Source: Escherichia coli (GTDB lineage Bacteria; Pseudomonadota; Gammaproteobacteria; Enterobacterales; Enterobacteriaceae). Taken from it: a stretch of 64,000 nt of DNA. A program made the position numbers and the translations under genes. Under the pieces are notes generated by a model. It did not search any database. It worked only from the letters and a program-made list of their open reading frames with translations, and was not told the origin of the DNA. The stretch lies in NCBI RefSeq assembly GCF_041886205.1, contig NZ_CP169029.1; one strand, written 5' to 3'. Of this stretch, positions 54,279 to 58,174 are shown piece after piece (within the stretch, counting starts at the first letter, position 1; the number at the start of each line of letters is the position of its first letter).

Positions 54279-57200
54279 AGTCCATCAGCGCCATCGTTGT
54301 TTTATGTTGAAGCCATCAATTAAATAACCGCACCACATACACTGTACTGTCAGTCATCCGCCGGAGTAAATCCAGCGTCATCGCCATCATGCAGTGAAGT
54401 TTATGTACTGATTTGCCGAAGAAACAGTTTTCGCGTCATGTCCGGTTATCAGCGCAAAGCCGCAGGTGTGCGCGTTCATCAACTCCCGCGTGTACATACG
54501 GAGCTTCATGTCACAACGACATGGCTATTGCCGGGAAGCCTGCTGGTCTTGCCACCGAATTTACAGCTTGTTTTCACCTTCTTTGTGGTGATGTTTGCCA
54601 GGCCACGTGATCAAACTGCTGGATTCACTGTTGTGAAATGTGTGGCCCTCCACCACACACACACACACTGGACCAATGATGCTTGAGCAACATGGTGATT
54701 ATCCTTTTGCCATACATGTCAATGCCCTCCTTTACTGTAACTGACCTTCGAACAAGTCAACGAGCCATCAGGCATGCGCACGTTAGGTGCAGGAATGTTG
54801 CCTAGAAATGTCACTCACACACACACTGTCTCAAATAATTGTTCAGATGCATGGGTACCTGTGTACACACACTCTCTCTTTATATAAAGACTAAATCTAT
54901 GTGGTTTGTAGATGTACATGTCTAGGTCAATGGCAGAAGACTTGACGAGCTGTTTCAATGACTAATTCTTTCCTTGCTGCCGACTGCCACGCCTTGTCGC
55001 CTTTGCCCAATAGCGCAGTATTCCATGAGCACCTCAGCCAATTGCATCTAAATGTTTAACCTTCAACCATTCCTGACTCCACTGTGGTAAGCCCACCACA
55101 CCATGCAAGCCCCAGCTTCAGAGAGGTGACTGGCCAATGGCTTCCTTGATGCATGCCCCCGCTGAGGCCCCAACCCGAGCTGTCACCTTGGGCTATAACG
55201 GTTCAAATTGACCTACACCGGGTGACCGACCTGATCTTTGCCGTTAGATCACGCACAGTCGAACACTTGCACCTGGTGCGTGGGTACCCCTTGTAAATGT
55301 GCAGTGGGCGTGCCACGTGTAACTGCCTTGTCGGCACCCTCGATGAGAGAGACTGACACAGTGTGCCGTCGGATTAGTTCAGAGCCCCAGAGTGCCCACA
55401 TTCCAGAGCTTTGAGCTGCCAGGTGATTAGTGGCACGAACAGGCTTCCCTTGCCAGGAGGACGTGACGGCGCTGAAGAACTTATTTTTTTATACTGCTGT
55501 GTGAACGGTTACACTACTGTGCTATGGGGTTTATGTAGATCCACTTGACCATTGTGTAAGCTGTTAAGAATAGAGTATTAGGGTTTATCATTTTAAGCAT
55601 GCTGTTGTGCGGGTAATGGTTTTTCAGCGATATACCGGGTAAGTGGGTACCAAAGTCGGTCACTCTCAGGCCCTTGTTGATCATGTCATGCTGCTGCATA
55701 GTTGCTGCTGCTGCCTCTTGCTGCCTTATCTTAGTGAGGTCGGCACGTCGGAAGCAGTGCCGCAGGTCGCCTTTCCGGTGTAATAGTTTTTCAGTTGACG
55801 ACGAATATATGTGCCATGGACACTGATTTTTATTGCTGTGGGTGTGTGTGTGCAGGTGGGTAAGAGTTGGACCCCCAAATACCATGTGTCTGTGTCATGC
55901 GCACTTTTGGGGTCAGAGCCCGTGGCGGCAATGGGAACAGTGCCACCAAGTTCAAGAATCCCTTGTGACTAGAAATCAACATTACGATGATCTTCTCCAA
56001 CCCCCACAGGGACCCTCTTCTTTGACTGAAGGGCAAGGGTAATTGGTGCCCTTCCATGGTGGCACGGCCCTAGGTGATGAAGGCTTATAAGAGACTCGAA
56101 CACGTGGAATTTGCTTTGACCTCGTGCTCCAGGGGTATGTTAGACCACCCACCTCTTACCCAGTGAGTGAACAAGTGGTTAATTAATTATTTTGGTGTTG
56201 TTACTGCAATGGCTTGTAGGGTTTGCCCCTCAATTCCAAATGTGTGACGAGAACAGTACCAGGTGAAGCGGGGACCAATTGTCCACGTCGGTACACAGAA
56301 CCACAAGCCCATAAAATATTGTTGTTGCTGTGGAAATGAGTCGAGCCAGCGTCGTCATGGTCAGCGAGATCCTTGCGGCAGTGTGGTGGTGGTATTTATA
56401 GAAGGGTTGTCGTCTTTGCAGAATTGATTTCAATGCCGGACGGTGGATCTTATCAGAGGCGTCAGAGCAGACCCGGCTGCGGTGGTGCTGAGACCTTGTC
56501 AACCACCTTTGCAATTGACTTGTCAATCTGTGTCTTGTGTCGTCATATGGTGGGGTTTGTTCAGTGAGTTGTTAATCATCTGCCAAGCCGACTTGGCCGA
56601 AGTGTAAGCCATCATGCTGACTCTTCCTCACACAGTCAATGTTGTGACTCCCAATCACAGAACCATCGGCACACGATCCATCGCTTGCTCAGGCCAGATA
56701 CCAGCTCCACCAATCTTTACTTTCGGCTCACCGTTGCCGGACTGCATTGTGCGGGCAGCCAGGTGCAAATCGAGCATCTTTCATCGAACTGCACGCCCTG
56801 TGAGGTGAAGCATCTCCATCATCAGTGTTGTGCGGGCCACTCGAATCCGCCTGCGCGAAGCTTTGCTGTTCCCAGACCATCCCGACTGTAGCCAGCTCCA
56901 TCACCAGCCTCGTGAGCCCGCTCTTTGCCAGCGCCAAGCATAGTTCCGGCATCACTGCTCCGTGTTCAAAGGCCGAGCTTGTCAAACGGTCCACCTGGAC
57001 AACAACCACTCGTGCTTTAGGTGTCGCCCATCGAGGTGTTCCATCGCGCCATCGGATAGAGTAGACTCCTCCAGGACTCCATCGAAGAGCTTGCTCGCGC
57101 ACCCAAGTGCGCTCAATGACGCGCTGGCTTCTCTTCACGCTGTGTTACTCGACGGTAGTTCGCAGGCAGTCCGCCCGAAGTAGAGTTGTTTATTCTGATC

Positions 57201-57424
57201 ACGAAGGAGCACAAGCGCCCGATCCGACAGAAGATTTAAAGACATCTCGCTTATGGACTGCGCGTAACAAAGTGCTTGCCAGAAGTGATGAAGTCGGTTT
57301 GCCAGTCGAAGCCGCCGCCACGCAGGAGATTTCTTTCAGTGCGGCAATCAGGTATTCGCGCTCTGACAGCGTCTGCGCTGCCTGGATATCGCGCATGGCC
57401 ACCATCCCCTGGCGGCGTTATGCC
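54279..57424 (-). other. Hyper-divergent, ORF-poor block occupying the position of hisF(5')-hisA-hisH-hisB-hisC(3'); degraded his remnant, or sequence/assembly artefact
   Basis: No ORF over 136 codons on the his strand across 3.1 kb; collinear but frameshifted His-like peptides (HisB-like ...QVDRLTSSAFEHGAVMPEL...QSFAQADSSGPHN at 56728-57138; HisH-like at 55830-56057; HisC-like [11 protein letters not shown] at 57199-57405); CA/TG dinucleotide runs; boundaries approximate. Confidence 0.7.
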
Positions 57425-58174
57425 GGCAACCGGCGTCGAGAGCGGGTAGGGGGCGATCACTTTCATCAGCAGGTTGATGACTTCTTCGTTTGCCAGCGTA
57501 AACCCGCAACGAAGGCCCGCCAGAGCAAAAGCTTTCGACAGTGTGCGCAAAATAGCCAGGTGCGGATATTCCGCCAGCCAGCCAGCCAGCGATGCCTGTG
57601 GGCAAAACTCGATATAGGCTTCATCGGCAACCACAATCGCCTTACCGCGCGTTAACTCCAGCAGGGTACGAAAATCCTGCGGATTGATCAGTTGCCCGGT
57701 TGGGTTGTTGGGGCTGCAAACATAGACCACTTTTACGCCGTCCAGCTTGTCGGAAATGCCCTGTAAGTCCAGTTGCCAGTTTTCCAGCGTCGGCACTGTG
57801 CGGCACTCGACGCCAATGGTTTCAGCGCTGACGCTGTACATGCCGTACGTTGGCGGGCAGTAGAGGATGGCGTCTTTACCCGGTTCGCAAAAAGCGCGAA
57901 TCAGTAGTTCAATACCTTCGTCCGCGCCACGGCTGACCAGCACCTGTTCCGGTTTTACGCCTGCATATTGCGCGTAATTTTCAATCACCGCTTTCGGCTG
58001 GCATTCCGGGTAGCGGTTGAGCGTTTGCTGAGTAAGCTGAAACTCCACGGCTGTGGGATATTCGTTGGCGTTCAGCCAGACGTCGCCATTACCGCCCAGA
58101 CGACGCGCCGACTGATACGGCGTCAGGTTGCGGACGTTTTCACGCGCTAAATCGGTAATAGTCACGGTGCTCAT
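57425..58174 (-). pseudogene. hisC: hisC (histidinol-phosphate aminotransferase), 5' 250 codons intact then frameshifted/diverged
   Basis: [40 protein letters not shown]...[13 protein letters not shown] matches HisC; the reading frame then leaves HisC sequence, with HisC-like residues reappearing in another frame. Confidence 0.8.

Follow-up and report, generated by a model that had tools for sequence, protein, structure and literature searches.

How can an operon match that of its relatives almost letter for letter on either side of two sharp boundaries and be unreadable between them? The question is raised by a 64,000-nucleotide (nt) stretch of Escherichia coli DNA (RefSeq assembly GCF_041886205.1, contig NZ_CP169029.1), referred to here as the window, in which the his operon loses its reading frame within hisC and regains it within hisF. 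Positions 50.9-60.8 kb of the window correspond to the ugd-wzzB / hisIE-hisF-hisA-hisH-hisB-hisC-hisD-hisG-hisL region of E. coli. The his genes are on the minus strand and lie downstream of an O157-type O-antigen cluster. We conclude, with a probability of about 0.85, that the block at 54276-57423 is a non-biological corruption of the sequence record and not a biological allele. Its errors are blind to codon position and to reading frame, the allele beneath them is the strain's own, and the flanks on both sides are perfect, as is expected of an artefact.

The his operon of strain NT1N31 (NZ_CP075480, locus L001) served as the reference. Further comparison alleles were those of E07, Santai (O157:H16, locus L004), L010 (GCA_052936195.1) and L002 (UTME-6). 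The left flank (50900-54275) is 99.8% identical to NT1N31, with 6 mismatches and no gaps, and the right flank (57426-64000) is 100.0% identical.

The boundaries in hisC and hisF

The features at the two edges are as follows.

54276-57423, no strand assigned: block read as corrupted, a colinear copy of native hisF(1-146)-hisA-hisH-hisB-hisC(251-356), bounded by the first mismatches.
57424-58174, minus strand: hisC codons 1-250, intact, with 100% identity to the reference.
57411-57412, no strand assigned: site of a 14-nt deletion in the alignment to native hisC, which causes the frame loss.
57199-57405, minus strand: open reading frame (ORF) of 68 amino acids (aa) with HisC-like residues ~263-291, probably a by-product of corruption and not a gene.
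53937-54275, minus strand: hisF codons 147-258, intact, with 100% identity to the reference (tblastn with HisF 147-258); the preceding 146 codons fall within the block and are lost.

The original prediction held that the hisC ORF beginning at 58174 matches HisC and then loses its frame at about codon 251, that HisC-like residues go on in a second frame, and that the edge in hisF behaves in the same manner. Nucleotide alignment to the reference hisC and hisF bears this out. It places the first mismatches at 57423 and 54276, and it locates the insertions and deletions (indels) that follow. Both of the ORFs that had been described are present (57251..58174, minus strand, 307 aa; 57199..57405, minus strand, 68 aa). 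At the right edge, identity holds down to 57424 and the match to reference HisC ends at residue 250. The first mismatch, at 57423, is the second base of hisC codon 251 and changes D to G. The 14-nt deletion between 57411 and 57412 comes next, and after it a 3-nt insertion at 57387. The deletion shifts the hisC frame and, together with the insertion, it lets HisC residues ~263-291 fall into the 57199-57405 ORF, where they are read out of frame with the gene. The 307-aa ORF runs on after residue 250 through 57 garbled codons to a stop at 57251.

At the left edge, hisF is again identical to the reference from 54275, where codon 147 starts, next to the first mismatch at 54276. An in-frame stop and the residues WTV stand just upstream, where the reference has NQYTGDESRTR, and a 113-aa ORF at 53937..54278 (minus strand) carries the remainder of hisF. 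The left breakpoint at 54275 was also found in 10 of 10 further public loci compared. The two edges are unequal, with ~20% noise inside the right edge versus ~35-40% directly inside the left edge, and noise is somewhat lower just within both edges than in the middle of the block. The frame loss in hisC is, as had been proposed, the edge of a diverged block with indels plus substitutions and not a clean insertion site, and the reference alignment does not reduce it to native polymorphisms in an intact frame.

No functional gene can be read through the block. A functional hisC would be an ORF of ~356 codons that matches end to end; its C-terminal 106 residues are present only as frame-broken fragments. 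ORFs of 355, 196, 245 and 258 codons for hisB, hisH, hisA and hisF, in operon order, are likewise absent. Only frame-broken fragments of HisC (260-349) and HisB (23-122) are recovered from the block by tblastn. There is no stop-free stretch of at least 450 nt within 53986-57064, and no ORF of the block exceeds 136 aa.

A colinear copy of the strain's own allele

The block divides into two regimes of noise.

54276-56650, no strand assigned: interior, heavy noise; edit-identity ~0.61-0.65 versus 0.54 for random or unrelated sequence.
Remnants within the interior: hisF 5' part (to ~54717), hisA (~54699-55396), hisH (~55396-55994) and the 3' two-thirds of hisB.
56651-57423, no strand assigned: right part, moderate noise; ~78-83% identity; hisB codons ~1-124 (to ~57082) and hisC codons 251-356 (57082-57423).

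The block is 3148 nt long and its native counterpart is 3133 nt in NT1N31, E07, Santai and L010, so it is 15 nt longer and keeps its length to 0.5%. The edit distance between block and native sequence is 1207 over ~3150 nt. The interior is ~62% identical to the native sequence, with 628 mismatches, 98 insertion events and 114 deletion events. Calibration by simulation corresponds to ~30% substitutions, ~11% insertions and ~11% deletions per site. The right 770 nt contain 97 mismatches and 55 indels, divided into 51 insertion and 4 deletion events.

Under such noise the native order is preserved. When 150-nt segments were matched to a 9.9-kb reference, the best local match fell at the colinear offset (50848-50922) for 13 of 16 interior segments and for all right-hand ones, and best matches were never on the opposite strand. 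Against shuffled sequence, most 200-nt segments of the interior reach z-scores of 7-22, and those of the right part reach 36-60. This colinearity contradicts the explanation that inserted or substituted foreign DNA (a mobile element, a cassette or a eukaryotic contaminant) displaced hisF'-'hisC and that the HisC-like residues are coincidental. Such an event would account for an interior that has no match by blastn in 'distant' mode against 28 Gb of E. coli genomes, and for its eukaryote-like CpG depletion, microsatellites and lack of ORFs. It would not account for offsets whose consistency excludes an alignment artefact, for a right part that is plainly hisB and hisC, or for the preserved length. 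A mobile element or cassette should also bring unrelated sequence, repeats or scars, and the block is colinear with native genes throughout. The boundaries have only chance-level short direct or inverted repeat matches and microsatellites, with no terminal repeats or target duplication. FRT, loxP, the pKD P1/P2 primer sites and I-SceI are absent at the block, and the lambda attB core has only a poor match with 4 edits. No promoter or recombination scars were found. An Rfam search of 53800-57800 at E <= 1 gave no matches, which speaks against a structured RNA. Against plasmids, the whole block matched only through its right 760 nt, as hisB/hisC at ~74% on chromosome-like records and not as an element. 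Foreign insertion is the least probable of the explanations considered.

The spread of the differences is also unlike that of natural divergence. By codon position, the right part has 36/31/30 mismatches and the interior 234/191/203. In the right 770 nt each of the 55 indel events alters the reading phase, which performs a random walk. A codon-aware generator was considered as a source and rejected, since frames are kept no better than chance as the phase walks. Two natural controls show what divergence looks like at and near this locus. The L002 allele is 82.5% identical to the reference, with mismatches of 28/20/242 by codon position and no gap columns. In the window itself, a patch of manB/cpsG in the O157 cluster (45947-47059) differs from L010 at 37 sites, of which 31 are third positions, without gaps; this cluster of differences is a natural recombination patch. 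A divergent allele should show such third-position bias and keep its frames and lengths, and the block instead has ~270 indel events.

The L002 locus is of interest in itself. It is a second, divergent his cluster in UTME-6 (NZ_CP169023.1, 1141125-1146307) that lies away from the normal his locus, is ~83% identical to the E. coli allele and has intact frames. It contains hisD-hisC-hisB-hisH and a truncated HisA/HisF-like gene. In 86 genome records the best match to the native block is only 80-90% identical.

The allele beneath the noise was examined through diagnostic sites. In the right part, NT1N31 and E07 differ at 21 diagnostic sites, of which 16-17 have the NT1N31 base; for NT1N31 and Santai the count is 12-13 of 15, and these single-nucleotide polymorphism (SNP) counts do not depend on the allele to which the block is aligned. 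The same SNP test in the interior is biased by the alignment target (57 versus 8 when aligned to NT1N31, 32 versus 43 when aligned to E07) and is not relied on; the assignment uses the right part and the global alignment score. That score is 1159 for NT1N31 versus 1039 and 1059 for the other alleles, and block scores for NT1N31 versus the divergent L002 allele are 228 versus 103 and 148 versus 32. The NT1N31-type allele of the flanks underlies the block. A donor haplotype would show an allele that differs from that of the flanks, and the right part shows none. The close relative L010, which also carries the O157 cluster, has 5 mismatches outside the manB patch over ~18 kb of flanks. Its block is intact, 3133 nt long and 1 nt off NT1N31. 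The native block is present in 5421 of 5426 complete E. coli genomes, and the version in the window is present in none of the 5426.

These results bear on the possibility that the native segment was replaced by import, either of a decayed his region from another organism or of a divergent allele that arrived with the O-antigen cluster. Natural his alleles and mosaics beside the O-antigen region resemble the block in having breakpoints in his genes next to the O157 cluster and a block-wise drop in identity. The rfb-gnd-his region is rich in recombination, and sharp breaks in identity within his genes are typical there; divergent his alleles of 80-90% identity exist in E. coli genomes (L002), and the block is colinear and of near-native length. 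Import is nevertheless contradicted by the codon-position, indel and haplotype tests. Natural mosaics keep their frames, have no indels and differ at third positions, as do both controls, and the block has no third-position excess. The allele beneath is that of the flanks, with a far higher score to NT1N31 than to the divergent allele. The junctions have no identity stretch that would serve homologous exchange. No donor was found in the GTDB genomes, JGI metagenomes, plasmids and E. coli genomes searched; for GTDB species genomes and JGI metagenomes the search used an exact 32-mer (right part) and an exact 23-mer (interior), gave no matches, in keeping with noise, and is a weak test for a diverged donor. 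The ~270 indel events include an insertion excess in the right part, opposite to the deletional bias of bacterial pseudogenes (Mira et al., 2001; Kuo and Ochman, 2009, as cited in a passage of PMC6054270). We regard import as highly improbable.

Decay in place fares no better. Pseudogene decay as in Shigella, Sodalis and Mycobacterium leprae likewise leaves lost frames, stops in all frames and a colinear operon remnant. The block differs in its retained strain-specific allele, its insertion excess and a length kept to 0.5%, and in flanks of 99.8-100% identity, which are also near-identical to L010 and do not have the divergence that would match the age of such decay. The near-perfect flanks and the retained allele leave no time for 20-50% neutral divergence. 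Decay should leave a deletional bias and indels at repeats or microhomology, which the insertion excess of the right part and a block 15 nt longer than native do not match. Among the single inserted bases of the right part, 7 of 35 copy a neighbour, where chance is 0.44; this is the opposite of slippage, which would give more. The perfect flanks and the insertion bias together contradict in-situ decay.

Vertebrate-like statistics and candidate causes

The interior has vertebrate-like statistics over a bacterial template. The observed/expected ratio (o/e) of CpG, 1.19 in the background, drops to 0.61 in the interior as a whole and to 0.31-0.35 at 54576-55175; the ratios of TpG, CpA and GpC are 1.50, 1.46 and 1.01. 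Native CpG is retained at 14% versus 32-57% for other dinucleotides, and its commonest fate is TpG. Three dinucleotide repeats accompany this composition.

54654-54667, no strand assigned: (CA)7 repeat, an 11-nt insertion relative to the native sequence.
54816-54825: (CA)5 repeat.
55842-55851: (GT)5 repeat.

They are the only dinucleotide repeats of at least 5 units in the 64 kb, and all are in the interior. Context-free corruption of matching intensity was simulated 2000 times; CpG o/e stayed at 0.87 or higher throughout, and each run produced at most one repeat of this kind. On the plus strand of the interior, C>T changes (142) outnumber G>A changes (44), uniformly along its length, and this bias is absent from 56651-57423. 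The interior has 302 transitions and 326 transversions, with all twelve substitution classes abundant. The right part is of another kind, enriching in C and nearly all insertional (51:4). We know of no E. coli process that yields such vertebrate-like statistics. Instead of mutation, they suggest a sequence prior learned by a generative or re-sampling model, or conceivably by a basecaller.

The strand bias invites a biological reading, in which 3.1 kb were hypermutated in situ by strand-specific cytosine deamination and error-prone repair, or by an engineered targeted mutator, and the strain is a his auxotroph. The native allele beneath, the sharp boundaries, the plus-strand C>T bias across the interior and CpG to TpG as the commonest change are what this would leave. 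Hypermutation by cytosine deaminases (APOBEC-type enzymes and deaminase-polymerase mutators) also gives strand-biased C>T over a kilobase scale. It does so without indels, with other classes rare and at a far lower load, unlike a block that has all twelve substitution classes, ~270 indel events and a right part without the signature. Between 20% and ~50% of positions are changed, which is orders of magnitude over any known in vivo targeted mutagenesis. The inserted bases avoid copying their neighbours, the right part follows a different, C-enriching and insertion-only regime, no mechanism in E. coli accounts for the (CA)n repeats and the CpG depletion, and promoter, recombination or engineering scars and boundary repeats are lacking. 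Biological hypermutation is contradicted by its magnitude, by the indels and by the mixed spectrum, and we give it less credence than import. The same very low credence attaches to a block that is physically present in the isolate, where deamination and indel-prone, error-prone resynthesis (for example of a reverse-transcribed or repair intermediate) would have scrambled 3.1 kb in place and destroyed five his genes without touching the flanks.

By exclusion, and from sequence alone, we infer that the cause was probably technical. In such a corruption a noisy version of the strain's native hisF-hisA-hisH-hisB-hisC, made position by position, would have taken the place of the original in the record. 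Substitutions and dense indels of 1-11 nt would have changed about 20% of positions in the right 770 nt and roughly half of those in the interior. The frame loss in hisC (codon ~251-255) and the truncation of hisF (codon 147) would mark where the corruption starts and stops.

Two technical routes were weighed. The favoured one, to which we give slightly better than even odds among all explanations, is computational alteration or generation with a learned vertebrate-like prior. Computationally generated or corrupted DNA, whether from a model with a learned prior or from a neutral-evolution simulator with CpG decay and slippage, would resemble the block in overlaying a bacterial template with vertebrate-like dinucleotides and (CA)n/(GT)n repeats. 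Lower noise near the edges is a further likeness, as is the absence of the block's products from gene indices where the flanks are common. The C>T strand asymmetry and the insertion-only regime of the right part differ from what a simple simulator predicts. Free-running autoregressive continuation from either flank is unlikely, as the block is colinear within tens of nt over 3.1 kb and its far end is within 4 nt of register.

The other route, which we consider possible and on the whole unlikely, is a patch from a single-molecule read of very low quality that escaped polishing when the remainder of the assembly was polished. Unpolished read patches and gap fills share with the block the frame-blind, dense indels and substitutions, a possible excess of insertions, colinearity, the strain's own allele and abrupt, perfect flanks. 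They differ in that the interior error is above usual raw-read error and in that the his operon is single-copy, so a 3.1-kb gap is unexpected. Read error is not known to us to bring CpG depletion, an excess of TpG/CpA or strand-biased C>T. The computational cause is favoured over the read patch because of the vertebrate-like statistics and the extreme level of error.

Several points weigh against reading the block as a corrupted record. Interior noise at roughly half of the positions is above the raw error of mainstream long-read platforms. Assemblers seldom keep such sequence, which weakens the read patch in particular. The strand-biased C>T resembles enzymatic cytosine deamination, and none of the explanations considered here, the favoured one included, accounts for it. 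An order-4 Markov likelihood test that looked for an E. coli-like prior gave a marginal z of 2.3 for the right part and, with z = 1.2, a null result for the interior. The products of the block (307-aa HisC', 113-aa HisF' and a 136-aa ORF) are not in a 153-billion-gene index in which the flanking Ugd occurs in 9743 blocks; the look-up needs an identical gene call, so absence from public indices is weak evidence.

The surrounding window and the meaning of the block

The remainder of the window is clean, with no other large ORF desert that lacks an explanation. Positions 1-25000 align to a known strain in a single ungapped alignment of 25,000 nt at 99.9%. The gene beyond hisF is also sound.

53332-53943, minus strand: hisIE, intact, 203 aa, with the same architecture as the annotated reference.

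The second-largest ORF desert of the window, and the only other sizeable one, is at 47159-48348. It is a known frameshifted remnant of an ISAs1-family (H-repeat) transposase, annotated between manB and perB in O157:H16 Santai (L004, 22449-23380). Upstream of hisL, 60474-61440 is an ORF-poor stretch of 967 nt; yefM-yoeB is absent in the relatives L005 and L014 and present in others. A tandem array with units of ~96/193 nt (4.9 and 2.5 copies, 95-96% matches) is found between colanic-acid genes at 28300-28776. It includes palindromic sequence of the repetitive extragenic palindromic (REP)-like kind and coincides with an ORF-free stretch at 28270-28752.

Read literally, the record describes a his-auxotrophic E. 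coli with O157 antigen, five inactivated genes and odd recombination breakpoints in hisC and hisF. The evidence speaks against all of these. If the block were real, it would be an unprecedented localised scrambling of a genome. The practical value of the finding is in quality control: no pseudogene, auxotrophy or recombination should be inferred from the block until it has been masked or re-sequenced. The spread of differences over codon positions, the phase walk, the retention of flank SNPs, dinucleotide o/e and natural controls from the same locus are general tests that tell garbled from divergent sequence. Most probably the his operon of the real organism is intact and functional, as it is in close relatives.

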